Shown here piece by piece: positions 4,572-52,227 of a stretch of DNA of 64,000 bases; position 1 is the first letter of the stretch; each line of letters opens with the position of its first letter. The notes under the pieces are model-generated. The model did no database searches. It saw only the letters and a program-made list of their open reading frames with translations, and had not been told where the DNA came from. Source of the stretch: an uncultured delta proteobacterium. GTDB taxonomy: Bacteria; Desulfobacterota; Binatia; UBA9968. A program made the translations under genes and the position numbers. Where the stretch lies: positions 768,001 through 832,000 of the forward strand of contig CAVSHR010000005.1 in NCBI GenBank assembly GCA_963727625.1, written 5' to 3'.

Positions 4572-4576
4572 GACGG

Positions 4577-5419: not shown

Positions 5420-5471
5420 ACCCTCGGGCGCCGCCGTGGGTTTAGAGCTCCATGCGCGGACTCGCTCATGC

Positions 5472-7703: not shown

Positions 7704-7708
7704 CGCCG

Positions 7709-8266: not shown

Positions 8267-8275
8267 AAGTACGAT

Positions 8276-9658: not shown

Positions 9659-9662
9659 GGGT

Positions 9663-35908: not shown

Positions 35909-36235
35909 ATGAGTAATAAGCTTCAATATTTCGTCGCCGCGCTGGCGCTGGCGTTGATGAGCTTATCCCCCCTGACGGTCCGGGCTGAAGAGGTTATCGA
36001 GAAAGCCGGTGTCGCTGTCGGCGTCAGCGCTGGAAATATGTGGTTCTTGCCGATCAAAGCGATTTCGATGTCAATTGGCGCATTGAGCGGCGCTCTCTCT
36101 TTCGTCGTCACGGGCGGCAATCTCGAATTGACACAACAAATTTGGCAAGACACCTCCCAAGGGCCCTACGTCATTACTCCCGATCTCGCCCGCACCTCGA
36201 TAGGCCGGCGCCCGGAACTCGCCGAGAAAAAATAA
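35909..36235 (+). CDS. Small exported or membrane hypothetical protein
   Basis: GAGG RBS, signal peptide MSNKLQYFVAALALALMSLSPLTVRA and a Gly/Ala-rich hydrophobic hairpin. Confidence 0.75.
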   Translation: MSNKLQYFVAALALALMSLSPLTVRAEEVIEKAGVAVGVSAGNMWFLPIKAISMSIGALSGALSFVVTGGNLELTQQIWQDTSQGPYVITPDLARTSIGRRPELAEKK

Positions 36236-36301
36236 CCGCGGCGCGCAACCCGGCTGCGAAGCCGCGCTGCACGCCGCATTCAATCCCTCGTGATCGTCTG
36301 A

Positions 36302-37036
36302 TTACGCTAAATTCGCCTTAAAAAAGCTGGCCGTTCTCGCCCACGCGTCTTTTGCCGCTTCGGGGTTGTAGCGGTCAGCGTTGGTATTGTTATTGAACGC
36401 GTGCTTCGCGCCGGGGAAAACTTTGCAATCGAAACTTTTTCCGGCTTTGGCTAATGCCGCCTTCAAAGGCTCAACCCCAGGCATGATGTTAGGGTCGTCT
36501 GCCCCGTAGTTGCCCATCACCGGACAGGGGATATTGGCGACCGAATCGAGCGGATCGGGGTTACGGCCGTAGTAGACGACCGCGGCATTGAGATCCTTAC
36601 ACTTCGTCGCGAAGTTCAGCGATTGACCACCGCCCCAGCAGTAGCCGACCACGCCGATTTTGCCGTTGACATAATTCTGCTTTTTCATGAAAGCCACGGC
36701 TGCGGTCAAATCCTCGGCCACCATGGTGCCGTTTACTTTCTGAATTTCCTTGGTGGCCTCATCACTACCATTCCATTTGTCGCTGCCACCAATGCGGCTC
36801 ATACAATCCACCGCGATTGCGGCAAACCCTTCTTTGGCGAAATGCCGAGCCACGTCCTTGATATGCCCCACTAACCCTCGGTTTTCATGAATGACCACAA
36901 CGGTCCCGAGATTTTTCCCGTCCTTGGGGCGGGAAACGTAAGCGTTCACGTTTCCGGCGGGGCCGGCAAACTGAACCATCTCCGAGCTTAGGGCGGCATC
37001 CTTCGGATCGACGATATTGTCTATAGTTTGCGCCAT
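36302..37036 (-). CDS. Dienelactone hydrolase family protein
   Basis: Motifs VIHENRG, GYCWGG (Cys nucleophile) and GAKHAFNN. Confidence 0.92.
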   Translation of the reverse strand: MAQTIDNIVDPKDAALSSEMVQFAGPAGNVNAYVSRPKDGKNLGTVVVIHENRGLVGHIKDVARHFAKEGFAAIAVDCMSRIGGSDKWNGSDEATKEIQKVNGTMVAEDLTAAVAFMKKQNYVNGKIGVVGYCWGGGQSLNFATKCKDLNAAVVYYGRNPDPLDSVANIPCPVMGNYGADDPNIMPGVEPLKAALAKAGKSFDCKVFPGAKHAFNNNTNADRYNPEAAKDAWARTASFFKANLA

Positions 37037-37144
37037 TGATTAAAACCTCCTGCGATTATTTTTTATTGTTCGTTTCCAGGTATAGCGAAAAACAATTTTC
37101 AATTCCAGTCCTTCGCTCGATCATTTGGCAGCCGCCGTCGGGCG

Positions 37145-37173
37145 AAAAAAAAAGCGGCGCCGCGGGCGCCGCT
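37145..37173 (-). terminator. Rho-independent terminator
   Basis: AGCGGCGCC-loop-GGCGCCGCT stem followed by a run of T on the minus strand, after the FmdB-family gene. Confidence 0.8.
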
Positions 37174-37221
37174 CATTTTAATCATACGATAAAGGCACTT
37201 GAATAATATTGCCGGCGAGCG

Positions 37222-37533
37222 CTATGCCGACGCGGTGCTGCTTGTCGTCGAGGATGTCTCGCCGCTGGAAGTTGAAGCTTCGCTTTTTTTCGTTTCGCCT
37301 TTCGTTTCACCGGAGGGCTTGGAGGAAGCGCTGCCTTTTGCGTCGCCGTTTTGCCCTTTGCGCGCATAATCGGTAACGTACCAACCCGTGCCTTTCAGCT
37401 GGAACGACGTGTTGGAGATCAGCTTTTTGACTTTTCCTTTACAGCTCGGGCATTTGCCCAAGGGTTTATCTGTGATTTTCTGGGTGAATTCGAAGGTACC
37501 GCACCTCTGGCATTGGTATTCGTAAATAGGCAT
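37222..37533 (-). CDS. FmdB-family zinc-ribbon protein
   Basis: [12 protein letters not shown]...CPSC...[13 protein letters not shown], with a Ser/Thr-rich tail. Confidence 0.93.
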
Positions 37534-37616
37534 GGGAATTCCTCTGATATAAAGTTATCTTAAAAAGTAACCACTACCCTGCGTGATGTCAATTAATCCA
37601 CAAAACCGCATGACCG

Positions 37617-37973
37617 TTACGCCCTAGCGTTGCGGTCGCTGCCATCCGCCTTGATATGGGGTCCGCCGAAAGCCTCGGAACGGTTGCCGAATAGTACCAG
37701 CGGCTCAGCGCCGGTGTTGGTTATCTGGTAGTAATCTTTGGCGTTTAAAAACACCACCTCGTTTTTTTTGATCGGCCGTTCTTCGCCTTTCAGACCCTTG
37801 ACCACGCCGCTGCCGGCGAGGATGAGAAAAGTTTCAGGGCTGGCATGGAAGTGCATATCCGTGCCGTCGCCGGGAACAAAATAGAGCATCCATGACCGAA
37901 AGTTATCCGTACCGAACAAATCGATTTTGCGCTTCGCGGTTTTCATCATTTCTTCGAGATTGGCAACGTCCAT
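37617..37973 (-). CDS. Cupin-domain protein
   Basis: MHFHASPETFLILAG (cupin motif 1) and YQITNTG. GGGAGG RBS. Divergent from the HDO gene. Confidence 0.85.
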   Translation of the reverse strand: MDVANLEEMMKTAKRKIDLFGTDNFRSWMLYFVPGDGTDMHFHASPETFLILAGSGVVKGLKGEERPIKKNEVVFLNAKDYYQITNTGAEPLVLFGNRSEAFGGPHIKADGSDRNARA

Positions 37974-38126
37974 GTCAAATCCTCCCTTGAAGTGGTTTGT
38001 ATACTAGCCCAGGACTATCGCGTTCGGCAAGTGCGGGCAAATGCGCCTTGACAGCCAATCGGGGCTGCAATATGTGGTGAGAGGTATCGGCTCGGGGATT
38101 TTAGAAAATTCGCAGGGAGGCAGTGG

Positions 38127-38870
38127 ATGCTCAAGTGCAACGAAAGCCAAGCCGTGGAAATGGTCGCCGAGTTGGCAGACAAGTGCGACAGGCGCTGGAA
38201 GGAGACCGTCGATAAGACTCGGTTCATGAATGAGCTGCGTGAAGGAAAGCTCAAGAGGAAAACCATCCAGCTCTTTTACAAAAACTGGGGCTCCTTCGTG
38301 CCGGTGATCAACTCGGTCTATACTTCGGCCTTTTACAAACATCTGTGGTTTTTCGTCAAGAACGTTGACCTGATGGAAGTCTACACTCAAAAAGTCCTCG
38401 ACGAATTCGGCCATCCCTCGCCGCCGGGCCATATTCAGATTCTGATGAGCACGGGAAAAGCGTTGGGTCTGAACAAAGAAGAGGTCTTGCTCTCGCCGAT
38501 GTTGCCGGAGTGCCGCGCCCTGCCGGATTTTCATCGCACCCTGATCAATGACGGCCAAATTCAGGAGTACTGGTTTTCGGTTCTATGGGAGCATCCCTTC
38601 GGTAATTCTTGTCTCGATTTTTTCAAGGCGCTCACCATGCACTACGGCCTCACCACCGCTGACGCCAGTTATTTTTCCAAGCATCATGAAGCCGACACCA
38701 TGGATCATTTGGATCGAAAGGCTCATGGCGCGGTGACCCAAGCCGTCCTGGTGCGCCTGCTGCAAGAGGGAATCAACGAGCGCCCCGGTTACTCGGCGGA
38801 ATACTGTGCGGTCACGCCGGCGGATTTGAACAAGATGTTCATGGACGGCTGCTATGCGACCACACACTAG
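38127..38870 (+). CDS. Heme-oxygenase-like dimetal (TenA/PqqC/CADD fold) protein, 'HPxPPGH' subfamily, copy 1
   Basis: Helical, 247 aa. Putative metal ligands in DEFGHPSPPGH, WE and HHEADTMDH. GGGAGG RBS. Confidence 0.8.
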   Translation: MLKCNESQAVEMVAELADKCDRRWKETVDKTRFMNELREGKLKRKTIQLFYKNWGSFVPVINSVYTSAFYKHLWFFVKNVDLMEVYTQKVLDEFGHPSPPGHIQILMSTGKALGLNKEEVLLSPMLPECRALPDFHRTLINDGQIQEYWFSVLWEHPFGNSCLDFFKALTMHYGLTTADASYFSKHHEADTMDHLDRKAHGAVTQAVLVRLLQEGINERPGYSAEYCAVTPADLNKMFMDGCYATTH

Positions 38871-38882
38871 CCGCCCATGAAA

Positions 38883-38945
38883 GATTGCAAATTCCAGATT
38901 CCAAACTTCCGGAATTTTGCAATCTGGAACTTGGACTTTGCAATT
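38883..38945. repeat. Imperfect intergenic palindrome built from 7-nt units
   Basis: ATTCCAGATTCCAAACTTCC versus GGAATTTTGCAATCTGGAAC, centred on TTCCGGAA. Confidence 0.7.
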
Positions 38946-38964
38946 CCGAGCGAAGCGAGGACTT

Positions 38965-39993
38965 ATGTCGCTGGAAGAACTGAACCAGAAACTCAAGAAA
39001 GAAAACCTCATCGGTTACTGGACGATACCGAACACCAGCACCAGCTTTCGCGAACCGGAAGCGAATTATCGCCCTTTTCTCTGGAAGTGGCATGAAATTC
39101 GCGCCGCGCTCGATGAAGCCGCTCAGTTTATCCGTCCCGAAGACGCGTTTCGCAGATTTATCGGCTACCAGCATCCGGAGTTGAAACTCGGCACGGCGCA
39201 TACGCTGCTCATGGGTGCGCAAATGGTCCGGCCAGGTGAGTTCGCTCCGGCGCACCGGCATACGATGGGCGCGATCCGCTTCGTGGTCGAGGGCCACGGC
39301 GCTGCCACCGTCGTCGAGGGCGAGCCGTTGCCGATGGAGCCCGGGGACTTGATCACCACGCCGAGCTGGAGTTGGCACGATCATGTCAACCCGGGCGACG
39401 CGCCGATCATCTGGTTGGACGGCGCCGACGGGCCGATGCTGCATTATTATCAAGCGGGTTTCGCCAATCCGTTTCATGAACGACAACAAGCAGTAACCAA
39501 ACCGGCAGGCTGGTCACAAAAGACTTACAATGTCCTACGCCCGCAGTCGGCACCGACGCCGACCTGGAATAATTATCGCCCGCCCTACCGCTACGCATGG
39601 AAGGACACCGCGAAGGCCTTTGAATCGATAACCGAAGCGCCCGGCGACCCCTACGATGCAGTCTTGCTGCGCTACTCGGATCCGATCGGCGGCGGCTCGA
39701 CGTTGCCGACGTTGAATTGCGAAGTGCAGATGTTTCGCCCCGGAGAGATTGGCGGCTCGCACCGCCACACGTACACGGTCGTTTATCACGCCTTTCGCGG
39801 CTCCGGCACAACCTGGGTCGGCGACCAGAGATTCGACTGGGAACAGGGCGACTCCTTCGTTGTACCGCTATGGAACTGGCATGCGCATGAAAACAATTCG
39901 CACCAAGCGGCAATACTTTTTTCAATCAATGATCGCCCGGCCATAGAGGCCTTGGGCTTCTTTCGGGAAGAAACGCGGGAAAGGGATGTCTAG
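38965..39993 (+). CDS. Gentisate 1,2-dioxygenase-like bicupin ring-cleavage dioxygenase
   Basis: Start MSLEELNQ. Motifs APAHRH, GDLITTPSWSWHDH, WLDGAD, SHRHT and VPLWNWHAHEN. Confidence 0.88.
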   Translation: MSLEELNQKLKKENLIGYWTIPNTSTSFREPEANYRPFLWKWHEIRAALDEAAQFIRPEDAFRRFIGYQHPELKLGTAHTLLMGAQMVRPGEFAPAHRHTMGAIRFVVEGHGAATVVEGEPLPMEPGDLITTPSWSWHDHVNPGDAPIIWLDGADGPMLHYYQAGFANPFHERQQAVTKPAGWSQKTYNVLRPQSAPTPTWNNYRPPYRYAWKDTAKAFESITEAPGDPYDAVLLRYSDPIGGGSTLPTLNCEVQMFRPGEIGGSHRHTYTVVYHAFRGSGTTWVGDQRFDWEQGDSFVVPLWNWHAHENNSHQAAILFSINDRPAIEALGFFREETRERDV

Positions 39994-40053
39994 GGTCTTG
40001 AGCCCCCCTCCCCCCAACCCTAAACTCTTGACCAAAACCGATCTGGCACACTT

Positions 40054-41475
40054 GTGGCATTCGCTGACTTAAGAAATTTTATCGACGGCGCCGCGCGCAT
40101 CGGTGAGCTGAAGACCGTCGATGGCGCGCACTGGGATCTTGAAATCGGTTGCTTGACCGAACTCATGGCCGAGCAGGACGGCCCGCTGCTGCTCTTCGAC
40201 AACATCGTCGGTTATCCCAAGGGCTTCCGCATCGCCACTAATGTGCTCGCCACGCCGCGCCGTTTCGCTCTCGCCCTCGGCTTGCCGACGGACGCGCTCA
40301 AGCTGGAAATTCTCAAAACCTGGCGCAACAAGATTCGCGATCTGAAACCGTACGCACCGGTAGAGATCTCGTCAGGGCCGATCATGGAGAACATTCTCGA
40401 AGGCAGGGGCATCGACCTGGGCATATTTCCAACACCCAAATGGCACGAACACGACGGCGGGCGCTACATCGGCACCGGCGACATGGTGGTCACCAAAGAT
40501 CCCGACAGCGGCTGGGTCAACGTCGGCACCTACCGTTCCTGCATCGTCGACAAGGATCGAGTCACGCTCTGGATCATCGAGCACAAGCACGGCAAACAAA
40601 TCGCGCAAAAATATTGGCAAGCGGGACGCCCCTGCCCCGTCGCCATCGTGCTCGGCTGCGAGCCGGCAACGTGGATGGCTGCACCCTCCGCCGCCAAGGC
40701 CGGCGTGAGCGAATACGAATACGCCGGCGCCTTGCGCGGCGCGCCGCTGGAGGTGATCCGCGCGCCGTTTACCGGCTTGCCCATTCCGGCGACTGCCGAG
40801 ATCGTCATCGAAGGAGAGATGCCCGCGCCCGAAGTTGAATCGCATGCCGAAGGGCCATTCGGCGAATGGCCGGGATATTACACCCACAGCGGCAAAGAAT
40901 GCGTGGTGCGCATCAAGCGGATTCTCCATCGCAATGATCCGATTCTGCTCGGCAATCCGCCGCTTTTGCCGATCACCGAGCGTTACGGCATTCCGCTCTT
41001 TGCGGCGCGCATCTGGGACCACCTGGAGCAATCCGGCGTCTCCGGCATCCAAGGAGTGTGGTGTCACTGCCACACCTTGATGGTCGTCGTTTCACTAAGT
41101 CAAAGGCACGCCGGCCAGGCGATGCAAGCGCTGACGGCCGTCGCCGGCATGCAGACAGGCGCAAGCATGTACCGCTACTACATCGCCGTCGACGACGACA
41201 TTGACCCGGTGGATTTGAAGCAAGTCATCTGGGCCATGTGCACGCGCGTCGATCCGGCGGAATCGGTACAGATTCTAAAGTCATGGACCACCGATCTCGA
41301 CCCGCGTTTGCCGCCCGAGAAACGCGATAAAGGCGACTTCACGATGAGCCGCATGCTGATCGACGCTTGCAAGCCCTACCACTGGCGCGACCAGTTCGCA
41401 TTAGCCAACAAATTCAGCGCCGAAAAACGTGAAGAGATTTGGGAAAAGTGGGCCCCTACACTCGGTCTGAAATGA
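40054..41475 (+). CDS. UbiD-family decarboxylase
   Basis: Motifs DGGRYIGT, NVGTYR, AEIVIEG, EGPFGEWPGYY, VDDDID and IDACKP. Confidence 0.95.
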   Translation: MAFADLRNFIDGAARIGELKTVDGAHWDLEIGCLTELMAEQDGPLLLFDNIVGYPKGFRIATNVLATPRRFALALGLPTDALKLEILKTWRNKIRDLKPYAPVEISSGPIMENILEGRGIDLGIFPTPKWHEHDGGRYIGTGDMVVTKDPDSGWVNVGTYRSCIVDKDRVTLWIIEHKHGKQIAQKYWQAGRPCPVAIVLGCEPATWMAAPSAAKAGVSEYEYAGALRGAPLEVIRAPFTGLPIPATAEIVIEGEMPAPEVESHAEGPFGEWPGYYTHSGKECVVRIKRILHRNDPILLGNPPLLPITERYGIPLFAARIWDHLEQSGVSGIQGVWCHCHTLMVVVSLSQRHAGQAMQALTAVAGMQTGASMYRYYIAVDDDIDPVDLKQVIWAMCTRVDPAESVQILKSWTTDLDPRLPPEKRDKGDFTMSRMLIDACKPYHWRDQFALANKFSAEKREEIWEKWAPTLGLK

Positions 41476-41755
41476 CCTCCGGTAAGCTTGGTGGCAAACC
41501 ATTGGCGCCGCCACTAAGCCCCGGTGTGTCGGTCGTACCGTTGCGCCGCGTATAGTGACGGTCAATGATCGTCATCAAGCGCGAGCAAACCAAGGCGACA
41601 CTGGATTATCAATCTGCTTATTTCGGATCTGCAAATCATGACACCGGCTAAAGAGGCCGAAGCTGACATCCCGCGTTGGCGACGCTTTGTATCACCGAGG
41701 ATGCTTGACTGAAGTTCTATTGCACCATATTAGGGTCAAAAAGGAGGAGACCTTG

Positions 41756-42664
41756 ATGGACAAAGTCAATTTCCCCTATCGCTCCGACAGCCATCTGCCG
41801 TTTTTGCACGTCGTGCACGATTCCGGCTCATGGTCGAAGCACGGCCTGGACGTGAACTACGACTACGAAATCACTTCGGAAGACTCGCATAAAAACGTCG
41901 CCAACGGCACCGTCGAGTTCGTCGGCGGCAACCACCTCTCGCCTTACATTCGCCGTCCCGCAGGAGACAAATGGGTTTACCTTGGGCAAACCGTCAGCCT
42001 GTTGAATCATCGCTTGGTCGTGCGCGCCGACTCGGGTATCAACAAAGTCTCGGATCTCAAAGACAAGAAAGTTGCGACCAAAGGCAAGCACCCCGGTTTG
42101 AATACCTGGCTCTTTATTAAGCAGGCGGGGCTGCTGAACGATTGTCAGGTGGAAAAGGCCAAGGGAAAGTTCCATTGGGAAGCGGTGCGCGACGGCGAAG
42201 CCGACGCCGCCTTCGTCACGCCGCCGGCGGATATTCTCTCCAAACGCGCCGGCCTCAAAGTCATCGAAGTGCCGTTTTTGCCGATGGTCTGGTTCACCAC
42301 GGTTTCCAGCGGCTTGCCGTTCGTCGAGAAACATCCCGACATCGTCGACAAAATGCTCCGCGGCATGTGCGAAGGCATCGCCTACTTCAAAACCCATCGG
42401 GCCGAATCGATCAAGATTATCAAAGAGAAATACAAAGCCGAAGGCGACCTCGACGACGAGGCGGCGACCCATCTTTATGACGATCTTAAAATGATCCTGC
42501 AGGCGAAGCCTTACGCGACCATTCCGGCGATCAGCAACGTCTACGAGATTTCCATCGAGCAGGACAAAGCCGCCGAGAAAACTGATCCGATGGCGCTGTG
42601 GGATTTTCACTATCTCAGGCGCATCGACGACAGCGGTTTCATCGACAACCTGTACAAACTTTAG
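41756..42664 (+). CDS. SsuA/THI5-like (PBP type II) protein lacking a signal peptide
   Basis: AGGAGG RBS, then MDKVNFPYRS with no hydrophobic leader. Motifs WSKHGLDV, INKVSDLKDKKV and IDDSGFIDNLY. Confidence 0.8.
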   Translation: MDKVNFPYRSDSHLPFLHVVHDSGSWSKHGLDVNYDYEITSEDSHKNVANGTVEFVGGNHLSPYIRRPAGDKWVYLGQTVSLLNHRLVVRADSGINKVSDLKDKKVATKGKHPGLNTWLFIKQAGLLNDCQVEKAKGKFHWEAVRDGEADAAFVTPPADILSKRAGLKVIEVPFLPMVWFTTVSSGLPFVEKHPDIVDKMLRGMCEGIAYFKTHRAESIKIIKEKYKAEGDLDDEAATHLYDDLKMILQAKPYATIPAISNVYEISIEQDKAAEKTDPMALWDFHYLRRIDDSGFIDNLYKL

Positions 42665-42720
42665 ATTTCGGCGTGTCCTGATTCACTTTAATTGGATAAA
42701 CCGAAAAGGAGGTAATAATC

Positions 42721-43791
42721 ATGAAGCTTCGTCTGCCATATTTTTTTCCGGCGCTACTGATAGCCACGAGCATGGGGCTGGTCCTCGATGGGAGGCCAGC
42801 ACAATCGGCTTCGGCGAAAGCCCACTATGAAGGCAAGACTATTACCGTGCTGGTTTCTTCCAATCCGGGCGGCGGCACGGATACGGCGGCGCGTCTCGTC
42901 GCCCGTTTCTTGCCGAAGTTTCTTCCAGGTCAGCCCCAGACCATCGTTCAGAACATGCCGGGAGGCGGCGGGACCATCGCCAACAACTATTTTGCCGCCA
43001 AGGCGAAACCGGACGGGTTGATGTTATTTCAGGACTCATCCTCCGGTCTGGGAAATTTCACCCGCGGCGGCTCGCGGATAAAATACGACCCGAGGAAAAA
43101 CCAGGCGATCGGTTCGATCACCCGGGGCGGCTCGCTGATGATGATCAGCAAAGAAGCCCGTCCTCGGCTCACGGATCCAAAGGCGAAAAAAGTCGTGGTC
43201 GGCGACAGCGACGGGATTCGAACCTGGGTCGCGACCATGGTTTGGGCCGCGGAGTATTTGGGTTGGAACCTCCGCTTTGTCTATGGTTATCCGGGAAGCC
43301 AAGAGTTGCAGCTCGCCCTCAGACAAGGCGAAATCGATGTCTGGGGAACCTCGAACGCCAAGCTCATCAATGATTTTGTCAAAGGAGGCAAGCACGAAGT
43401 CTTGTTTCAGCAGGAGGACCAACGGCGGCCTGGATTTCCCAACGTGCCGACTTTTGAAGAGGTCCTGGGCGACAAGAAACCTAAAGGTCCGGCGTGGGAA
43501 GGCTACCTGGCCTGGTCGGGTCCAAACGAAATAGACAAGTTTTTAGTCGCGCCGCAGGGCACGCCGCAAGACGTCGTCGCCGCGCTGCGCGCGGCCTTCG
43601 TCAAGATGGGACAAGACGAGGAGTTCAAAAAACAGGCGACCAATTTTTTTGGCGACGCCTGGCGGACCCGAACCGGAGAAAAAACGCAATCGATGATTCG
43701 CGATGTCACGACAATCTCGAAAGATGCCCAAGCGGTCCTAACCAAACTCCGCAAGAAGTACGGCTTGCCCACCGGCAAGCAAAGAAAATAG
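42721..43791 (+). CDS. tctC: Tripartite tricarboxylate transporter substrate-binding protein (Bug/TctC)
   Basis: Signal peptide. Motifs PGGGTDTAARL, VQNMPGGGG and GYPGS..LALRQGEID. Confidence 0.88.
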   Translation: MKLRLPYFFPALLIATSMGLVLDGRPAQSASAKAHYEGKTITVLVSSNPGGGTDTAARLVARFLPKFLPGQPQTIVQNMPGGGGTIANNYFAAKAKPDGLMLFQDSSSGLGNFTRGGSRIKYDPRKNQAIGSITRGGSLMMISKEARPRLTDPKAKKVVVGDSDGIRTWVATMVWAAEYLGWNLRFVYGYPGSQELQLALRQGEIDVWGTSNAKLINDFVKGGKHEVLFQQEDQRRPGFPNVPTFEEVLGDKKPKGPAWEGYLAWSGPNEIDKFLVAPQGTPQDVVAALRAAFVKMGQDEEFKKQATNFFGDAWRTRTGEKTQSMIRDVTTISKDAQAVLTKLRKKYGLPTGKQRK

Positions 43792-43798
43792 GCAAACT

Positions 43799-45289
43799 AT
43801 GCTTGAGGCTGCGATCGAGGGGCTGCAAGGTATTTTAACCTTTCAGTCCCTCTCGATGATGCTTCTAGGGGTCCTCATCGGCAGCTTGGTGGGCTTTCTC
43901 CCCGGCATCGGCGGGCCTACGACCCTCGCCATCATGCTTCCTTTCGTCATGGTAATGAAGGATCCCGTGCCGGTCATCGCGCTGCTGGTGGGTATCGATG
44001 CAGTGGGCAACACCGCCAGCTCGTTTACATCGATTCTCATATCCGTACCGGGGAGTTCGGGGTCGCAAGCGACCATTCTCGACGGTTATCCGATGGCCAA
44101 ACGGGGCGAAGCTTTGCGGGCCTTGAGCGCTTCTTTCATGGCCTCCCTCGTCGGCGGCTTGATCGGCCCGCTCATCCTGCTCGCCTCTCTACCCTTTCTG
44201 CGCCCCTTAGTGCTCGCCTTTGGTTCGCCGGAGTTCTTCGTGCTGACGCTCTGGGGACTTGCCATGGTCGGAGTCTTGAGCGGCAACGCTCCCGTCAAAG
44301 GGCTGATGGCGGGAATCATCGGCGTCTTTATCGCCACTGTGGGTCTGGACATAAAATCCGGTATCGAGCGTTTTTCCTTCGGGGAGCCCTATCTTTGGGA
44401 CGGTGTCAGCTTGATTATCGTCGCCCTCGGCATATTCGGCGTTCCGGAATGTATCGACCTGGCGACCCGAAAATCGAGCATCTCAGAAAGACACGAACTA
44501 GGGTCTGGATTCAAACAGGGAATCCTGGATGTCTTTCAGAACATGTGGCTTACGGTAAGGTCGTCGGCCATCGGTATCTGGGTCGGATTTTTGCCCGGGC
44601 TGGGAAGTTCGGTAGCGGATTGGTTCGCCTACGCTCATGCGGTTCAGACGGAGAAAAACCACGAAAATTTTGGCAGGGGTGATGTTCGCGGCGTCATCGC
44701 GCCAGAAGCATCCAACAACGCCAAGGAAGCCGGCAGTTATATCCCAACGCTGGCCTTCGGCATTCCCGGCGGCACATCCACGGCGCTTATTTTGGTTGCG
44801 TTTACCGCGGTCGGCATCAACCCCGGCCCCGAAATGCTGACGACGCAATTGCCGTTCACCTTCGCAATCATCTGGACGTTGACGATTTCCAATATCATCG
44901 CCGTGGCGATCTGCATGGCCTTTGCCAAACCCATCGCCAAGTGTTGCTTTTTCCCCTTCTACACCATTGTGCCGCTGATTCTGGTTTTTGTTTTTATCGG
45001 CGCGTTTGCCGCCCATTTTAATGACTATGATCTTGGGTTGCTCCTGGTCTTTTCCGCCTTAGGTTTCATGATGCGCCGGCATGGATGGCCCCGCGCGCCG
45101 TTGTTGCTCGGCGTGGTGCTTGGAACGAAGATGGAACTTTATCTCTGGCTTTCATACACCCGCTTTGGCACCGAATGGCTGCTGCGGCCCGGCGTGATTG
45201 TTTTGTTCGTTATCGTGCTCGCCTCGGTTTTTTATCCCGTTTGGCAAAACCAACGGGGTGGCGGTTCCGATCCTTCGGAAGCGGCGTAG
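43799..45289 (+). CDS. tctA: Tripartite tricarboxylate transporter large permease
   Basis: Motifs GFLPGIGG, ATILDGYPMA, GVIAPEASNNA and IPTLAFGIPG. Confidence 0.95.
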   Translation: MLEAAIEGLQGILTFQSLSMMLLGVLIGSLVGFLPGIGGPTTLAIMLPFVMVMKDPVPVIALLVGIDAVGNTASSFTSILISVPGSSGSQATILDGYPMAKRGEALRALSASFMASLVGGLIGPLILLASLPFLRPLVLAFGSPEFFVLTLWGLAMVGVLSGNAPVKGLMAGIIGVFIATVGLDIKSGIERFSFGEPYLWDGVSLIIVALGIFGVPECIDLATRKSSISERHELGSGFKQGILDVFQNMWLTVRSSAIGIWVGFLPGLGSSVADWFAYAHAVQTEKNHENFGRGDVRGVIAPEASNNAKEAGSYIPTLAFGIPGGTSTALILVAFTAVGINPGPEMLTTQLPFTFAIIWTLTISNIIAVAICMAFAKPIAKCCFFPFYTIVPLILVFVFIGAFAAHFNDYDLGLLLVFSALGFMMRRHGWPRAPLLLGVVLGTKMELYLWLSYTRFGTEWLLRPGVIVLFVIVLASVFYPVWQNQRGGGSDPSEAA

Positions 45290-45292
45290 CAC

Positions 45293-45766
45293 ATGAGTTG
45301 GATCAAAATTGAAAAGCTGCTATTTACCCTGTTCATAGCCGCGTTGCTAGCCGGCGCCCTTCAAATCGCCCGAGATTGGTCCATCCGCGCATCGATTATC
45401 ATTTTGGTTTTGGGTGGAATCGGCTTAGCGCTGGCCGTCGCCCAATTAGTTTCGGACTTTAAAAACCTCCGCTCGCGAAAATCCGCCGCGGCCTTGACTA
45501 TGGAGGCACCAGCCTTGGAGGTGAGCAGCCGCTGGGGCAATTTTGAAATCTGGGCTTGGATTTTAGGATTTTACGGCTTCATTCACATTGTTGGCTTTCC
45601 GCTCGCCGTGCCGCTGTTTGTTTTTTCTTATACCAAGGTATACGGGGGGGGTTGGATTCTCTCGGCGGCGCTGGCGGTGATGTCTTGGGGCTTTGTATTC
45701 TTATTATTCGACACGCTCCTACATGTCCCCTGGCCTGAATCGCTTTTCGGCGCGATGATTTCTTGA
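45293..45766 (+). CDS. tctB: Tripartite tricarboxylate transporter small permease
   Basis: Small multi-TM protein with C-terminal LFDTLLHVPWP. Follows tctA. Confidence 0.85.
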   Translation: MSWIKIEKLLFTLFIAALLAGALQIARDWSIRASIIILVLGGIGLALAVAQLVSDFKNLRSRKSAAALTMEAPALEVSSRWGNFEIWAWILGFYGFIHIVGFPLAVPLFVFSYTKVYGGGWILSAALAVMSWGFVFLLFDTLLHVPWPESLFGAMIS

Positions 45767-45817
45767 GGAGCTAAGGATTTTGCCATGCGTCAGACCGCGC
45801 CCAAATTAGGAGTTCCC

Positions 45818-46558
45818 ATGAATTCCGCGGACTCCAAGGCTTACATCAGTGAAGTGAACAAGAAAGTCGTCCAACGCTGGCAGGAACGCGTCACCGACGG
45901 CCCGTTCATGAGCCCATTTCTCGAAGGCAAACTGTCCCTGTCGGCTATTAAGTTGTTTTTCAAAAATTGGGGCAACTTCACGGTTGAGATCAACACCCTG
46001 GTGTCGGTCTCCTATCACAAGCACATAGGCTTTTTTAAGCGCCATCCCGACTTAATGGGCCCGCTCGGGGTTAAAATCGCCGATGAATTCATTCATCCCA
46101 AACCACCCGGCCATGTGCTGGTCATGCTGCAAACCGCCGCAGCGCTGGGTCTGACGCAGGATGAAATCCTGCGTCTGCCGATGCTTCCCGAATGCCGGGC
46201 GATTCTCGACTTCAAACGCCAACTCATGTGGGAAGGCACCGTTGCCGAGTGGTGGTTCTCGATGCTCACCGAAGAGCCCATCGGCCACTGGTCGGCCATG
46301 TGGTTCAGAACCTTGACGCAGAAGTACGGCTTCACCGAAGAGCAGGCGGTTTATTTCTCGACCCATGAAGAAGCCGATTTGAAAGAGCACGAAGACGGCG
46401 TCATGGGGCACGGCAGTTTTAACAAGCTGGTCATGCAGAGGATATTGGAAGACGGCTACGCCGACACGCGCGAAGGTTACAATTTGGAATACTGCGCCCT
46501 CGCCGCCGTCGATCTCTACGGCGTCATGCACCGCGCCGCGGTAGAGTTAGCGGAATAA
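45818..46558 (+). CDS. Heme-oxygenase-like dimetal protein, 'HPxPPGH' subfamily, copy 2
   Basis: AGGAG RBS before MNSADSK. Motifs KNWGNF, DEFIHPKPPGH, LTEEP and THEEADLKEH. Clear paralog of 38127. Confidence 0.82.
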   Translation: MNSADSKAYISEVNKKVVQRWQERVTDGPFMSPFLEGKLSLSAIKLFFKNWGNFTVEINTLVSVSYHKHIGFFKRHPDLMGPLGVKIADEFIHPKPPGHVLVMLQTAAALGLTQDEILRLPMLPECRAILDFKRQLMWEGTVAEWWFSMLTEEPIGHWSAMWFRTLTQKYGFTEEQAVYFSTHEEADLKEHEDGVMGHGSFNKLVMQRILEDGYADTREGYNLEYCALAAVDLYGVMHRAAVELAE

Positions 46559-46647
46559 ACCATGCCTAGAGCCTCGCGTCTCGTGTTTTGAGTTGAGGCC
46601 GAGCGCAACTCTATACTCTAGACCCAAGACAATTACCCAAGGAGCTT

Positions 46648-48093
46648 TTGATGACCCCCTCAAACCACGACCTGCGCGCCTTTCTAAACGAAGTCGATAA
46701 AATCGGCGAACTGCGCCGCATCGAAAACATCCCCTGGGACAAGGACATCGGCGGCTTGGTCGAGATGATACTGGAACGCAGCGACCATCCACCGGCGATG
46801 CTGTTCGAGAAAGTCCCCGGCGCGCGCCGGGACATGGAGATTCTGTGCAGCCAGATCGACACACTGCCTAGACTGGCAATCGCCATGGGCACCGATCCGA
46901 AACTCGGGCTGACCGATTTCATTCAGGCGTGGCGCCGTAAGATTCGCAACTTCGAGCCGGTTCCAGCACAGTTCGCCAATGACGCGCCGATCTTTGAAAA
47001 CCGCGTCGACAAACAGATCGACCTCGAAGCCTTCCCGATTCCGCGATGGCATGAAGAAGACGGCGGGCGGTATATCGGCACCGACGATCTGGTCATCACC
47101 GAAGATCCCGAAGAGCATTGGATCAACGCCGGAACTTACCGCGTCATGCTGCAAGGCAAAGACGCCGTGGCGCTCTATATCTCGCCGGGCAAACATGGCC
47201 GCGTGCAGCGGCAAAAATATTTCGACGCCGGCAAGCCCTGTCCGGTGGTCATGTCCTTCGGCCATCACCCGATCCTGTTTCTCGCCGCCTGCACCGACGT
47301 GCCGGTGAAGATGAGCGAGTTCGATTATGCCGGCGGCGTCATCGGCGAACCGATTCAACTGGTGCGCGGGCCGCTGACCGGCCTGCCGATTCCGGCTTAC
47401 TCGGAGATCGCCATCGAGGGTGAAATGGTTCCCGGCGACGACCTGCCCGAAGGACCGTTCGGCGAATGGCCAGGCTACTACGCCAGCGCCACGCGTCCGG
47501 AGCCGGTGGTGCGCATCAAGGCGCTCTATTACAGAAATAATCCGATTCTCTGCGGCGAACCGCCACTGCGTCCATCGGCGGGTCAGGGATTTCACCGCTC
47601 GATCCAACGCTCGGCGTTGATCTGGAACGCCCTTGAAGACGCCGGCGTCCCCGACGTTCAAGGCGTCTGGCTTCATCCCGCCGCTTATCGATTTTTTTCA
47701 ATTCTAAAAATCAAACAGCGCTACCCCGGCCACGCCAAACAGGCGGCCTTGATCGCCAGCCAATGCCGCCCCGGGGCGTATCTCGGCCGCTACGTTGTGG
47801 TCGTCGATGATGACATCGATATCTACAATCCTAACGACGTCATCTGGGCCATCGGCACGCGCTCGGAGCCCGAGAACATCGATATCCTGCGCCGCTGCTG
47901 GAGCGGTCCCCTCGACCCGGCGATCCCGCGCGAACGCAAAGGGTTCAACTCGCGCGCGATCATCGACGCGACGCGGCCGTATGAATGGCGCGACAGGTTC
48001 CCTGCCGTCAACGCCGTGAGCGACGACTTCAAGGCCGAGCTAGACAAGAGATACGCCGCGCTACTCAAAGAAGTGGTGGGGCGAACACCCTAA
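46648..48093 (+). CDS. UbiD-family decarboxylase
   Basis: Motifs DGGRYIGT, NAGTYR, SEIAIEG, EGPFGEWPGYY, VDDDID and IIDATRP. Confidence 0.95.
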   Translation: MMTPSNHDLRAFLNEVDKIGELRRIENIPWDKDIGGLVEMILERSDHPPAMLFEKVPGARRDMEILCSQIDTLPRLAIAMGTDPKLGLTDFIQAWRRKIRNFEPVPAQFANDAPIFENRVDKQIDLEAFPIPRWHEEDGGRYIGTDDLVITEDPEEHWINAGTYRVMLQGKDAVALYISPGKHGRVQRQKYFDAGKPCPVVMSFGHHPILFLAACTDVPVKMSEFDYAGGVIGEPIQLVRGPLTGLPIPAYSEIAIEGEMVPGDDLPEGPFGEWPGYYASATRPEPVVRIKALYYRNNPILCGEPPLRPSAGQGFHRSIQRSALIWNALEDAGVPDVQGVWLHPAAYRFFSILKIKQRYPGHAKQAALIASQCRPGAYLGRYVVVVDDDIDIYNPNDVIWAIGTRSEPENIDILRRCWSGPLDPAIPRERKGFNSRAIIDATRPYEWRDRFPAVNAVSDDFKAELDKRYAALLKEVVGRTP

Positions 48094-48147
48094 CCGTACC
48101 AACCTCGGCGCCGCTGTTTTGAAACGCGAAAAAATTGCAGGGAGCAA

Positions 48148-48344
48148 AAACCGAGAACAGCGTTCATTCTTATTGCAGCGTTTACCTTGCTCGTCGTTGG
48201 TAAAAATGCCCTCGATTCCCGAGGCCACCCGAACGCGCGCGACGTCAAACCGGCCAGCGTGATTGACACGACAATGGTCAAGTAAATAAGACGTCCGACT
48301 TTTTCGATAAGCTCTATGGGCGCCCGCCAAAGAATGAAAAATAG
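48148..48344 (+). pseudogene. Internally deleted SsuA/THI5-type binding-protein remnant
   Basis: Reads KPRTAFILIAAFTLLVV (signal-like), GKNALDSRGHPNARDVKPASVIDTTMVK*, then a frameshift to SDFFDKLYGR. The tail matches C-termini of intact paralogs here (e.g. DTTIVDRLDREGFFAKLY). Confidence 0.6.
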
Positions 48345-48354
48345 CAAATCGCCT

Positions 48355-49368
48355 TTAGCGCTTGAGACCCGCAACCGTCGCGCGCCATCGCGCTTCATTC
48401 TCGCCGGGGACCACTGGTAAATAGAAGCTCACCCGGTCGAGCAGATCAGCGTATTTTTGCAAGACTTTTTTAGGCAACTCGGCCCAGCTGGCACGCAGGG
48501 CAAAGGCGTCGAGCATGTCATCGGTAATCAACGAAGGCATTTCCTTCCATCGCCCGCGCGCGGCCATCGCCTTGAGCTTATCGGCCACGCCGCCCCAACC
48601 TTCGAGTTCGAATACCGGCCGATACGTCGGCGTGCTGGCGTAAAAAGAAATCTGCTCGCGAATCTCGGACTCATACTTCGCCGCGTTCAGGTCGTCCGTA
48701 GGAACGACGAAGATACTGCTCGACACTTCGATGACGTGGCGCTGCCGGCCGCTTTTTGCCAGGCCGACCTCGATGTTGGGCAACACTTTTTCTTTTAAGT
48801 AGCGCGCGCTGTGCAGCGGGTGCGCGTGGAAGCCTTCGCATAATTCTCCGGCGAGCTGGCACATGCGCGGGTTCACGCCGGCGACAAAGATCGGAATGCG
48901 GTGGTACTCGTGCGGTGCCGGACTGAAAAACGGCGTCATCAGCGTGAGCTTGAAAAATTCGCCCTGGTAATTCAGCCTTGTTTGATTCTGCCAGCAGTCC
49001 CATAGCGCGCGCAAAGCGAGAATGTAATCGCGCATCTTGTCCACCGGCTTTTCCCACTTGACGCCGAAACGGCGCTCGTTATGACCCTTGACCTGAGTTC
49101 CGAGCCCAAGAATGAATCGCCCATTCGAATAACGCGCGAGATCCCAGGCGATCTGCGCCGTGATTGTCGGACTGCGTGGGAACACGACTGCGATGCTCGT
49201 GCCGATGTTTAAATGTTGGCTATGTTCGGCAGCTAAAACCAATGGCAAAAACGGCTCATGTGCGGCTTCAAAAGTCCAAAGGCCATCGAAACGGGCGTCC
49301 TCGCAGAACCGCGCGAGCGCCGGCATCTGTATGAGATCATGAACCAGTAGGCTGGCATCGAATTTCAT
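48355..49368 (-). CDS. LLM-class (luciferase-like) oxidoreductase, probable F420-dependent (TIGR03617-like)
   Basis: Start MKFDASL. Motifs EAAHEPFL, FPRSP, GRFILGLGTQVKGHNERRFG and QISFYASTPTY. Confidence 0.85.
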   Translation of the reverse strand: MKFDASLLVHDLIQMPALARFCEDARFDGLWTFEAAHEPFLPLVLAAEHSQHLNIGTSIAVVFPRSPTITAQIAWDLARYSNGRFILGLGTQVKGHNERRFGVKWEKPVDKMRDYILALRALWDCWQNQTRLNYQGEFFKLTLMTPFFSPAPHEYHRIPIFVAGVNPRMCQLAGELCEGFHAHPLHSARYLKEKVLPNIEVGLAKSGRQRHVIEVSSSIFVVPTDDLNAAKYESEIREQISFYASTPTYRPVFELEGWGGVADKLKAMAARGRWKEMPSLITDDMLDAFALRASWAELPKKVLQKYADLLDRVSFYLPVVPGENEARWRATVAGLKR

Positions 49369-49521
49369 CCGCACCTCATGGATCGCCATCGATAAGCTAT
49401 TTTTCGCTTTGGCAACCGCTTGCAAGAATGACGATTTGCCATTCCAACCCAATTTAACTTATATTCAAGTCATTCAAACGGCTAAGCAAAACGACTCATC
49501 GCAAGAAGGAGACTCTGCTCC

Positions 49522-50490
49522 ATGTTAGGTAAAATAACAGCGCGCCTTTGGATCTTGCTGCCCATCGCTACACTTGCGTTGACAACCGCGGTACAAGCGC
49601 AAGAAAAAATTCGTATCGCCTACGCCTCGAATTCACTGGCATTCTTGGTTCCCTTTGTCGCCCAAGACCGCGGCTTGTACATGAAGCATGGTCTCGATGT
49701 CGAAATGATTCAAGTGCGTCCAGGCGTCGCCATGGCCGCGCTGCTGAGCGGCGATATTGGCTATGTCGAACTGATCGGATCGACCATCCGCTCAGCGGCC
49801 AAAGGCGCACCCGTCCGCGCCATCTCCACAAGTATTCGCGCGCCGTTTTTCAGTCTGATTGCGAAAACTAAATACAAGTCGGTCGCAGAACTAAAGAGCC
49901 GCACGATCGGCGTGACATCGTTAGGCGGAACCAACTACATTGCGACACGCATGGTGCTCGAACACTTCGGCCTGGACTCGGAAAAGGACGTCAAGATCAT
50001 TGCCATCGGCGACGAAAGACTGATGCACGAGGCGTTTAAGATCGGCCGCGTCGACGCCGTCATGGTCGCACCACCTTTTTCGGTCATCCTCAAGCGCGAA
50101 GGCTTTTCCGATCTGGCCAACAGCGCGAAACTGCTGACAATCCCGTTCTCTGGCATCGGCACGACTCTGCAAAACATCAAGAGCAACCGCAACCAGATAA
50201 AAAAGGTTTTAAAAGCGGAAATCGAAGCGATGCGCTACTTGCACGACAACCCGGAGGGAACGACCCAGGTCATATTAAAGCGATTTAGCATGGACCCCAA
50301 GCTCGCGCGCGAGTCCTATGATGTCGTGATCGATGCTTTCAGCCGCGACGGCCGGGTGCCCCTCGATGGCGTCGAGACTTTGCTGAAAATTGAAAAAGCC
50401 AGAAACCTAGTGCCGCAAAGCGTTAAAGCCGAAAATGTCGTCGACTCCACCCTCGTCAATGAAGCGCTGAAGGAGTTGGGCAGTCGATAA
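49522..50490 (+). CDS. SsuA/THI5-like ABC substrate-binding protein
   Basis: Signal peptide ending VQA, then QEKIRIAY. Motifs GLYMKHGLDVE and ALLSGDI. Confidence 0.9.
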   Translation: MLGKITARLWILLPIATLALTTAVQAQEKIRIAYASNSLAFLVPFVAQDRGLYMKHGLDVEMIQVRPGVAMAALLSGDIGYVELIGSTIRSAAKGAPVRAISTSIRAPFFSLIAKTKYKSVAELKSRTIGVTSLGGTNYIATRMVLEHFGLDSEKDVKIIAIGDERLMHEAFKIGRVDAVMVAPPFSVILKREGFSDLANSAKLLTIPFSGIGTTLQNIKSNRNQIKKVLKAEIEAMRYLHDNPEGTTQVILKRFSMDPKLARESYDVVIDAFSRDGRVPLDGVETLLKIEKARNLVPQSVKAENVVDSTLVNEALKELGSR

Positions 50491-50628: not shown

Positions 50629-52227
50629 TCACCCCAGTTTATTGACCCGCACCCGCTGCTTGGACCGCTTCTCTCCGGTTTCATAATGATCGCCCTTCAC
50701 CGCGGCTTGCGCATCGGCTTCGTCCTCATCCGACCATAAACCGAGATCATAGCCGTGCCACGGATCTTGCGGCTTGAGCTTGGGTAATTCCAAACGCTCC
50801 CATAGCTGCTTGGCGCGCTCCATGTATTCCTTTTTCGGCAACGACACCGGCGGATAAGCCCACTTGCGTGTCGCGTCCATCAGCATCGCCGAGGAGCCGG
50901 CTATTTCGTCAACGGACAATCCCTGCTCATGGCCCGGAGGAAATACCGACGGGTCCATCTGCGGCGTGCGGTTGCGAATGATCAGCACGTCGCGGTGCGG
51001 TTGCATGCGAAAAGCCATCGCCCAGAAGAGCGAATCGAGATTGCGCGGATTGATATCTTCATCGACCGCGATGACCATTTTTCCGGTGGCGGGATTGTAA
51101 CCGACCATGCTGTGCAGCGCCTGCCAAACATGAGCCTGGTTGATCTTTTTCATCTTGATCACACAGATCTGGCGCACGGCGATGCTGTGAAAGGCGACTT
51201 CGATGATGCCGGGAATATTGCACTGATCGCGCAGGAAGCGCAGATAGTTTCCTTCGGCCGCCACCTGGCGCATGACGCTCGACTCGCTCGGCGGCATCTG
51301 GCTGATGATCGTCGCCAAGATCGGATTCTTACGGTGCGTCACGCATTTCACTTCAAAGTAGGGATTCAAAAGTTTTTCCGCGATATAGCCGGTGGATTCG
51401 CCGAAGGGTGCTTCGGGTTCGAGAAACTCTGTGGAAATCTCGCCTTCGATGACGATCTCCGCGTTGGCCGGCACGAGAACCTCATTGGTCTTGCACTTGA
51501 CCACTTCGATAGGCTCCCCGGCCAGCCCGCCGGCGACGTCGAGCTCGCTCACGCTGAAAGGAATCCGCGCCGGCGCGGTGTAGGAAACGCAGGGCGGCGC
51601 GCCGATAACTAGCGCAGCTTGCAGCGGAATGCCACGCTCCTGACACTTGCGCCAGTGATAACCGCCGTGATTGCTCGAGCTCAAAAACACGCCGGTGCGC
51701 GTGGGGCTCTTGATATGGCCGCGGTAGTTGCCGATGTTTATATTGCCGGTCTCCGGATCGCGCGTAAACCAGTGCGACGCCGTAGTGAACGGCGCGCAGT
51801 CATAACCCGGCGTGGAGATCGGCACCGGGAATTCTCCGAGCCCGCCCTTTTCCAAAAGCGCTGCGCCCAAGTGGACCTCTTCGTGCACCGGCGCGTTCTG
51901 AACAATTCTTGGCGGAATTGGATTGCTCTGTGCTTTATTCCAGCGCTCGACGATTTCCTCCGGCTGGCATTGCAAGCCGAAGCCGTAAATCTGCCGCGAC
52001 GCGGCGAGGGTGCCGACGACGACCGGAATGTCGTACTTGCGCCCCTTGGCATCGATGACGTTGGTAAACATGAACGCACGCCGCTCTTCTTCCGAAAGCC
52101 CGCGAAACTGCCAGCGCACCAGCGGCATCAACTCCGTGTCTTTGTTGATCTGCTCGTCGATTTTGACCAGCAAACCCGCCTTATCCAGCGCGGCGATATG
52201 CTCTCTCAAATCTTTGAAATAGCCCAT
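50629..52227 (-). CDS. UbiD-family decarboxylase
   Basis: Motifs DLREHI, NIGNYR, AEIVIEG, EAPFGESTGY, VDEDIN and MDATRK. Confidence 0.95.
   Translation of the reverse strand: MGYFKDLREHIAALDKAGLLVKIDEQINKDTELMPLVRWQFRGLSEEERRAFMFTNVIDAKGRKYDIPVVVGTLAASRQIYGFGLQCQPEEIVERWNKAQSNPIPPRIVQNAPVHEEVHLGAALLEKGGLGEFPVPISTPGYDCAPFTTASHWFTRDPETGNINIGNYRGHIKSPTRTGVFLSSSNHGGYHWRKCQERGIPLQAALVIGAPPCVSYTAPARIPFSVSELDVAGGLAGEPIEVVKCKTNEVLVPANAEIVIEGEISTEFLEPEAPFGESTGYIAEKLLNPYFEVKCVTHRKNPILATIISQMPPSESSVMRQVAAEGNYLRFLRDQCNIPGIIEVAFHSIAVRQICVIKMKKINQAHVWQALHSMVGYNPATGKMVIAVDEDINPRNLDSLFWAMAFRMQPHRDVLIIRNRTPQMDPSVFPPGHEQGLSVDEIAGSSAMLMDATRKWAYPPVSLPKKEYMERAKQLWERLELPKLKPQDPWHGYDLGLWSDEDEADAQAAVKGDHYETGEKRSKQRVRVNKLG

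Follow-up and report, generated by a model that had tools for sequence, protein, structure and literature searches.

We have analysed a 64,000-nucleotide stretch of the genome of an uncultured soil bacterium of the Binatia (contig CAVSHR010000005.1, positions 768,001 to 832,000; hereafter the window), which carries on its forward strand two paralogous genes for heme-oxygenase-like putative dimetal oxidases/oxygenases (HDOs): HDO_A at 38127-38870 (A-type; P0001, 247 aa) and HDO_B at 45785-46558 (B-type; P0002, 257 aa). Each of them heads a gene for a UbiD-family decarboxylase resembling PhdA, and the initial annotation of this DNA had proposed that the HDO is either a missing hydroxylase or oxidase or a new partner that activates UbiD. 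We propose, with a probability of about one half, that these HDOs are putative substrate-oxidising, probably hydroxylating, oxygenases in the catabolism of aromatic or heteroaromatic carboxylates, and not maturases of UbiD. The observations on which we draw are the fold, an invariant set of three histidines and three carboxylates, the paralogy of the two genes, and the gene order and neighbours over 77 loci. Across the relatives, HDO and UbiD are not fixed partners, and their pairing reflects how genes are ordered locally.

Fold and candidate metal site of the two HDOs

HDO_A and HDO_B are identical at 99 of 232 positions (43%, E 8e-71), which places their similarity far above chance, and the six motifs listed in the initial annotation (KNWGxF, DEFxHPxPPGH, PMLPECRA, WFSxLxE, HxEADxxxH..HG and GYxxEYCA) occur in both translations, and our 21-sequence alignment shows most of them to be invariant. 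The forward-strand reading frame given for HDO_B was right and only its start had to be moved, because 45818 is an internal ATG, while the open reading frame (ORF) starts at 45785 and the longer N-terminus is kept in homologs. Words resembling ribosome-binding sites precede the start ATGs of both genes. With the Pfam family PF14518, P0002 scored 35.0 bits, above the gathering score of 28.9, and P0001 scored 27.1 bits, just below it; the assignment of HDO_A draws also on its likeness to HDO_B, and that of HDO_B on a fold model. This AlphaFold2 model of P0002, made from the 21-sequence alignment (pLDDT 93.8, pTM 0.90), is all-helical and has the seven-helix heme-oxygenase-like fold. Foldseek placed CADD (8vag and 1rcw) at the top of the PDB matches (E about 1e-7, TM score 0.69-0.73 on the query), followed by FlcD, a TenA homolog, PqqC, UndA and BesC, with E values of 8e-8 to 3.5e-4 overall, and CADD was also the closest solved protein in a profile search (E 1e-6).

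Six residues of P0002 (E101, H110, E163, H194, D198 and H202) are candidate metal ligands, being invariant both in the 21-sequence alignment and in all of the collected HDO copies of at least 200 aa (101/101); the candidate ligands of P0001 (E93, H102, E155, H186, D190 and H194) are likewise invariant in the HDO_A alignment. Characterised HDOs have Glu and His on core helix 1, Glu on core helix 2 and an HxxxDxxH motif on core helix 3 (PMC13133933; this and the other papers cited below are represented by parts of their text). E101 and H110 of P0002 are parted by the Pro-rich DEFxHPxPPGH turn, unlike the corresponding pair in the characterised HDOs treated in that part of the RohS paper (PMC13133933). 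On the preceding helices, between positions 41 and 99 of P0002, the 21-sequence alignment has no invariant acidic residue; this matches the pattern of the 3-His/3-carboxylate (3H/3C) HDOs, where a ligand of Fe1 comes from the substrate (PMC13108848; PMC13133933). Two further carboxylates, D100 and E196, are invariant as well. The HDO_A/HDO_B clade is an as yet uncharacterised part of the known HDO superfamily, and we infer that each HDO would bind two metal ions (Fe and/or Mn) and activate O2.

Two more specific assignments were tried and rejected. The model of CADD-type synthases (TIGR04305) gave 19.5 bits for P0002 against a cut-off of 200 and no match for P0001, and the residues that CADD sacrifices, Tyr27 and Lys152 (PMC13108848), are replaced, facing Met42 and Trp173 of P0002 in the HMMER alignment. 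The PqqC/TenA family (PF03070) gave 18.0 and 15.0 bits against a gathering score of 22; "PQQ biosynthesis protein C", under which relatives of these HDOs appear in the source records, is an automatic label.

A search for longer proteins found two HDO fusions among 7998 scored candidates (P0377 and P0378), in which an HDO domain 43% identical to P0002 and with intact motifs stands N-terminal to an O-methyltransferase (PF08100 and PF00891). The PF00891 family methylates hydroxyl groups of small aromatic molecules. A fusion of HDO to UbiD was not found in this search, which is weak evidence. Tandem HDO-HDO proteins of about 480-520 aa also occur (P0237, P0240, P0242, P0257 and P0320), and the loss of several candidate metal ligands from the second domain of P0237 suggests that this protein may be a catalytic/non-catalytic pseudo-dimer.

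Gene order in the window and among the relatives

Pfam searches bore out the gene order given initially, HDO - gentisate-type dioxygenase - UbiD - periplasmic-binding-protein (PBP) fold protein - tctCAB - HDO - UbiD, all on the forward strand. HDO_A is followed by a gentisate-type bicupin ring-cleaving dioxygenase with two Cupin_2 stretches (38965-39993, from the probable start ATG 38965 within an ORF that begins with TTG 38917), by a PhdA-like UbiD decarboxylase (P0004; 40054-41475) and by a probably cytoplasmic NMT1/THI5-like protein of PBP fold (PF09084; 41756-42664, within an ORF from 41687). The last of these had been described as lacking a signal, and inspection agrees with this, no hydrophobic leader being seen from the likely start ATG 41756 (MDKVNFPY...), seven bases before which the word AAGGAGGA ends. 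A TctC-family periplasmic solute receptor with a hydrophobic N-terminus (PF03401; 42721-43791), the large membrane subunit TctA (PF01970, 412 bits; 43799-45289) and the small membrane subunit TctB (PF07331; 45293-45766) lie in consecutive genes and make up a complete gene set of a tripartite tricarboxylate transporter (TTT). HDO_B and a second PhdA-like UbiD paralog (P0009; 46651-48093, the ORF opening at TTG 46648 and the likely start being ATG 46651) complete the row.

The dioxygenase is a member of the broader bicupin gentisate 1,2-dioxygenase (GDO) family, matching PDB 2d40 (E 6.9e-69) and 3bu7 (E about 1e-68); its scores stayed below the equivalog cut-offs of both specific models, namely 296.8 bits against 650 for MabB (5-aminosalicylate 1,2-dioxygenase) and 269.6 bits against 442.1 for gentisate 1,2-dioxygenase. 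Both UbiDs contain three UbiD Pfam domains and exceed the TIGR00148 cut-off of 244.85 (279.4 bits for P0004 and 261.2 for P0009), and they are 41% identical to each other (E 6e-118). P0004 aligns end to end with PDB 7PDA (598 bits, E 1e-178) and P0009 matches it with 342 bits; 7PDA is PhdA, the phenazine-1-carboxylate decarboxylase of Mycobacterium fortuitum (PMC10850782). In the UbiD tree, P0004 and P0009 belong to a single clade (100/100) that excludes the two other UbiDs of the window, and this clade also holds UbiDs 5-10 kb from clusters of the order GDO-HDO-FAH (L060 and L072) and the UbiD of L039, which lies on the opposite strand beside an HDO of 71% identity. The catalytic arginine R161 is invariant in the UbiD alignment and E266 and E271 in EGPFGE are nearly so; we take these three residues to be equivalent to R173, E277 and E282 of Fdc1.

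When P0002 was used in a word-based search, 841 of 1148 candidates matched at E <= 1e-3, and P0001 gave 105 proteins. At 50% clustering the family is small, with 342 representatives at E <= 1e-3 and 61 at E <= 1e-30 out of 1.84 billion, many of them fragments. The 120 P0002 matches listed are 77-88% identical to it, and the few named ones come from metagenome-assembled genomes (MAGs) of Binatia, "Deltaproteobacteria" or Udaeobacter. An Atlas look-up led to the same Binatota clusters as the protein searches, and a tblastn search of 72,556 plasmids with P0002 gave no match. The HDO_A/HDO_B clade is found mostly in Binatia-like MAGs.

For gene neighbourhoods, we took the best 80 of 323 relatives from a genome scan with P0002, which gave 77 loci from 58 Binatia-like MAGs with 102 HDO copies. 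These loci are ranked by likeness to P0002; A-type copies enter only via the flanks, and the context of A-type relatives at 57-64% identity lies outside the sample. ORFs of the loci were called in this analysis and labelled by BLASTP against the window proteins; the unlabelled neighbours (152 ORFs) formed 85 clusters, of which 77 representatives were compared with Pfam and eight short singletons were left unlabelled.

A UbiD on the same strand is the immediate neighbour of 25 of the 102 HDO copies, and all 25 belong to the two clades syntenic with the window: 9 of 19 A-type copies (in seven more, UbiD comes second, after the dioxygenase) and 16 of 33 B-type copies of at least 75% identity, against 0/14 of the B-type copies at 70-73% and 0/36 of those at 55-63%. 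If copies with less than 1.5 kb of sequence downstream are set aside, UbiD is the next gene downstream in 13/26 B-type copies of at least 79% identity, 2/17 at 70-78% and 0/30 at 55-63%. A tree of the 101 copies and two outgroups, made by a quick method and unrooted in practice with the outgroup on a very long branch, has UbiD adjacency in 17 of 20 rows of the A-type clade, in 17 of 29 rows of the B-ortholog clade (11 rows are without it and one ends at a contig end) and in none of the 52 remaining rows, requiring eight state changes. In the 11 loci whose HDO_B ortholog has no downstream UbiD, all candidate ligands are kept, indicating that the HDO has been retained without a neighbouring UbiD. 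A tblastn search for UbiD downstream of these orthologs found no remnant in 10 of the 11; in L004 (10765-12500), a 47-residue N-terminal UbiD remnant lies 3' of an intact HDO_B ortholog, and the sister locus L012 has the full UbiD.

A UbiD lies within 10 kb of the HDO in 19/19 A-type copies, 27/29 B-type copies of at least 79% identity, 5/18 at 70-78% and 8/36 at 55-63%, counts that need not mean enrichment over the genome-wide UbiD density. In P0211, a frameshifted read-through protein, an A-type HDO (59% identical to P0001) runs on into the N-terminal part of a UbiD from another subfamily (54% identical to the window UbiD at 50629). The UbiDs within 10 kb, the shared UbiD clade and P0211 together fit an association at the level of the pathway, with an old duplication of an HDO-UbiD pair, and do not fit an obligate partnership.

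The commonest immediate neighbour of HDO is an NMT1-like gene, in 37 of the 102 copies. Orthologs of the window's NMT1/THI5-like protein are 302-303 aa long and up to 97% identical, making this the most conserved gene of the syntenic block; its model (pLDDT 92.6) matches 3qsl, ThiY, Thi5, SsuA and PqqT, which are generic PBP matches. Thiamin pyrimidine and PQQ are each the shared ligand of a known pair of a PBP-fold and a heme-oxygenase-fold protein. Outside the syntenic block, GDO-type bicupins rank next: one directly adjoins 18/102 copies on the same strand, and these copies belong to the A-type group and to two branches within the most distant clade. FAH (8 copies), molybdenum (Mo) hydroxylase subunits (9) and dienelactone hydrolase (9) are further immediate neighbours. 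In the clade at 70-73% identity, HDO goes together with genes for dienelactone hydrolase, an Amdase/maleate-isomerase-like protein and an NMT1-like protein; in the clade at 55-63%, one branch has the order GDO-type dioxygenase - HDO - FAH hydrolase in at least eight loci, and in another HDO is accompanied by a split thiamine pyrophosphate (TPP) enzyme and Mo-hydroxylase subunits. Elsewhere, HDO lies next to a 389-aa cupin protein, Amidohydro_2, glyoxalase-type dioxygenases or a family III CoA-transferase. The neighbours across these clades are those of aromatic or heteroaromatic acid catabolism. The tctCAB genes are an optional insert, present at the equivalent place in only four related loci (L004, L012, L023 and L028). 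Genes for F420H2-dependent quinone reductases adjoin HDO copies in L033, L035-L037 and L041.

Possible functions of the HDOs

In the reading that we favour, the region would be a duplicated catabolic module of an HDO, an optional gentisate-type dioxygenase, a PhdA-like UbiD and a cytoplasmic NMT1/THI5-like protein, and the TctCAB carboxylate importer inserted between the two module copies would bring in an aromatic carboxylate. Each HDO would oxidise the (hetero)aromatic carboxylic acid handled by its own module, the likeliest reaction being ring hydroxylation, with the carboxylate of the substrate completing the metal site as in the substrate-triggered HDOs; this would give the ortho-hydroxy-carboxylate needed by the gentisate-type dioxygenase. 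The PhdA-like UbiD would take off the carboxyl group non-oxidatively, the dioxygenase, where encoded, would cleave the ring, and HDO and UbiD would be tied by their common pathway with no protein partnership. Ring hydroxylation is the most economical guess because it would provide what a gentisate-type dioxygenase requires, because the O-methyltransferase fusions fit it and because it agrees with the first of the two initial proposals. A reasonable first guess for the substrate, made only because P0004 is a close homolog of PhdA, would be a phenazine-carboxylate-like or other polycyclic or N-heteroaromatic acid. The ligands kept in every copy, the catabolic neighbours and the fusions are all consistent with the missing hydroxylase or oxidase proposed initially, and fall short of proving it.

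Several points weigh against ring hydroxylation. The third-core-helix motif of the HDO_A/HDO_B clade, HxxxDxxxH, is one residue longer than that of characterised HDOs. The ring-cleaving partner is often not there, the bicupin dioxygenase being an optional insert present in 8 of the 19 A-type loci. A flavin aromatic-ring hydroxylase (PF01494) adjoins GDO-HDO in L076, and a hydroxylase therefore need not be missing everywhere. In the GDO-HDO-FAH clusters, the HDO sits at the position of the maleylpyruvate isomerase of classical gentisate operons. The characterised HDOs covered by a 2026 mini-review all belong to natural-product or cofactor biosynthesis or to heme catabolism (PMC13108848) and the word "aromatic" occurs zero times in its text; arene hydroxylation is therefore without precedent among the HDOs described there.

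The isomerase position leads to an alternative that we consider possible though doubtful, in which the HDO would serve the same pathway by other chemistry, such as oxidative decarboxylation or C-C cleavage in the manner of UndA and BesC, N-oxygenation of an aromatic acid that carries an amino group, or a later step on the cleaved ring, for instance the isomerisation of a maleylpyruvate-like product. C-C cleavage, decarboxylation and N-oxygenation are all carried out by 3H/3C HDOs (PMC13108848; PMC13133933), among NCBIfam models, that of the 5-aminosalicylate enzyme MabB scores highest with the window's dioxygenase, and decarboxylase families other than UbiD (TPP enzymes, Amidohydro_2 and Amdase) adjoin HDO in other clades. 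The O-methyltransferase fusions are, however, better explained by a newly made hydroxyl group, and the full conservation of the candidate redox-type dimetal site speaks against a plain isomerase.

That the HDO is a dedicated accessory of UbiD, an O2-dependent maturase of prenylated FMN (prFMN) or a chaperone replacing PhdC or LpdD, appears very unlikely. Such dedicated proteins do exist, as the initial annotation stated: phdABC is a three-gene operon in which PhdA is activated by the prenyltransferase PhdB and by PhdC, an HpaC-like protein of flavin-reductase fold that matures prFMN, and LpdD is a prFMNH2-binding chaperone (PMC13040415). No Pfam match to UbiX (PF02441) or to a PhdC-like flavin reductase (PF01613) was found among the 52 window ORFs scanned, which leaves room for such an accessory, as do the two paralogous HDO-UbiD pairs in one window, the position of UbiD one or two genes downstream of the HDO in 16 of 19 A-type copies, and the P0211 read-through. 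The wider count of co-occurrence, however, goes largely against the UbiD-activating partner proposed initially, with 77 of the 102 copies lacking an immediate same-strand UbiD, including all 50 in the clades at 55-73% identity. The 11 of 29 B-ortholog rows without a downstream UbiD keep every ligand, PhdA is already served by PhdB and PhdC in phdABC (PMC13040415), the HDOs studied so far, in the account of PMC13108848, need no protein effector, and the fusions found are to O-methyltransferase and none to UbiD. A term search found no literature joining heme-oxygenase-like proteins to UbiD, nor any joining Binatia to UbiD. Heme-oxygenase-like pockets hold planar polycyclic ligands in PqqC and heme oxygenase, and a more specific form of this idea, to which we give little credence, is that the HDO would be a new O2-dependent accessory oxidase that matures or repairs the prFMN of PhdA-like UbiDs without an adjacent PhdC or LpdD, its pocket holding the four-ring cofactor.

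It is highly improbable that the HDO is a CADD-like self-sacrificing synthase or a PqqC/TenA-like metal-free cofactor enzyme paired with a THI5/ThiY/PqqT-like PBP and beside UbiD by chance, since, set against CADD as the closest solved structure by sequence and fold, the frequent NMT1/THI5-like neighbours, the model matches to ThiY, Thi5 and PqqT (which share ligands with TenA and PqqC) and the source label, there are the TIGR04305 and PF03070 scores far from or below their cut-offs, the replaced Tyr27 and Lys152, the invariant candidate metal ligands, which speak against a metal-free enzyme, and the catabolic genes around the HDO.

If the clade does hydroxylate aromatic acids, the HDO superfamily would gain its first catabolic arene oxygenase, as far as the cited parts of the literature extend, and the substrates of gentisate-type ring cleavage could be made with neither a flavin nor a Rieske enzyme. 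The cluster suggests a way in which the Binatia, which are uncultured and abundant in soil, may break down (hetero)aromatic carboxylates, perhaps including antibiotics of the phenazine type, and it offers new PhdA-like UbiD enzymes for biocatalysis. For UbiD research, the result is mainly a warning, since the striking local pairing of HDO and UbiD does not extend to the family as a whole.

Other features of the window and comparison with known systems

Upstream of HDO_A, a divergent unit on the reverse strand consists of a dienelactone hydrolase (36302-37036), an FmdB zinc-ribbon protein (37222-37533) and a monocupin (37617-37973), all assigned with Pfam and NCBIfam; it is conserved at the same position and orientation in 16 of the 19 A-type loci. 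Just downstream of the module, an F420-dependent luciferase-like oxidoreductase (TIGR03617, 423.8 bits) is encoded at 48355-49452 on the reverse strand. The initial statement that the module has no flavin or Rieske hydroxylase holds for the module itself; with this gene next to it, the neighbourhood is not free of other redox enzymes. Two further UbiD genes lie at 31118-32689 (forward) and 50629-52227 (reverse), and three more NMT1-like genes are present. Two further HDO-like genes, at 54969-55679 and 58058-58771 on the reverse strand, belong to another subfamily: they are 57% identical to each other and match P0001 and P0002 with 26-34% identity over 56-122 residues only (hhalign probability 62%), and this remote relationship supports the description of HDO_A and HDO_B as a second HDO subfamily. 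Each of this pair adjoins an NMT1-like gene, and a glyoxalase-fold gene, a dienelactone hydrolase and a Mo-hydroxylase are close by.

An Rfam scan of 36000-50000 found no family at the gathering score, and scans of 37000-49600 counted seven promoter-like sites (6.1 expected) and 31 terminator-like sites (17.0 expected), with no clear boundary between modules. In the 92-base gap between HDO_B and its UbiD (46559-46650), there is a promoter-like TTGAGT-18-TATACT at 46588-46617, and because of this site the second UbiD may own a promoter. The intergenic stretch between HDO_A and the dioxygenase (38871-38964) contains a TTGCAA(A/T)T-like word three times, possibly an operator. Genes for alternative complex III (ActD, NrfD-like and Fe-S subunit) and cytochrome c oxidase (COX1, COX2 and SCO1) at 1030-12710 on the reverse strand suggest that the respiratory chain is aerobic, as would suit O2-dependent catabolism. 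A single 1148-aa ORF at 27338-30784 on the reverse strand joins MFS transporter, spermidine-synthase-like and TPR domains.

Among known systems, CtCADD and NePabS, the self-sacrificing p-aminobenzoate synthases, share the seven-helix fold with P0002, and their 3-His/3-carboxylate ligands align at its candidate ligands E163, H194 and D198; they differ in being 16-17% identical to it, in the last His, which in P0002 is shifted by one residue, and in the context, which is catabolic for P0002. The substrate-triggered 3H/3C enzymes UndA, BesC, AetD and HrmI are similar in the fold (UndA and BesC being matched), in their set of six ligands, to which the candidate ligands of P0002 would correspond, and in having no invariant extra Glu on the auxiliary helix; HDO_A and HDO_B, too, could plausibly have their metal site completed by the carboxylate of a substrate. 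Their substrates are, however, fatty or amino acids in biosynthesis (PMC13108848; PMC13133933), whereas the HDOs of the window adjoin enzymes of aromatic-acid catabolism and a TTT importer.

A classical gentisate operon combines a hydroxylase, gentisate 1,2-dioxygenase, maleylpyruvate isomerase and an FAH hydrolase. The window resembles such clusters in its GDO-family bicupin, and related loci do so in their GDO-HDO-FAH order, but the module of the window has neither a flavin or Rieske hydroxylase nor FAH, and its dioxygenase scores below both equivalog cut-offs. The phdABC operon of Mycolicibacterium fortuitum is similar in its PhdA, to which the UbiD at 40054 aligns from end to end and the second UbiD more distantly (598 and 342 bits); beside the window UbiDs, however, there is no homolog of phdB or phdC, their neighbours being an HDO, a GDO-type dioxygenase and a PBP-fold protein. 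PhdC itself has a flavin-reductase fold (PMC13040415), in contrast to the unrelated helical bundle of the window HDO.

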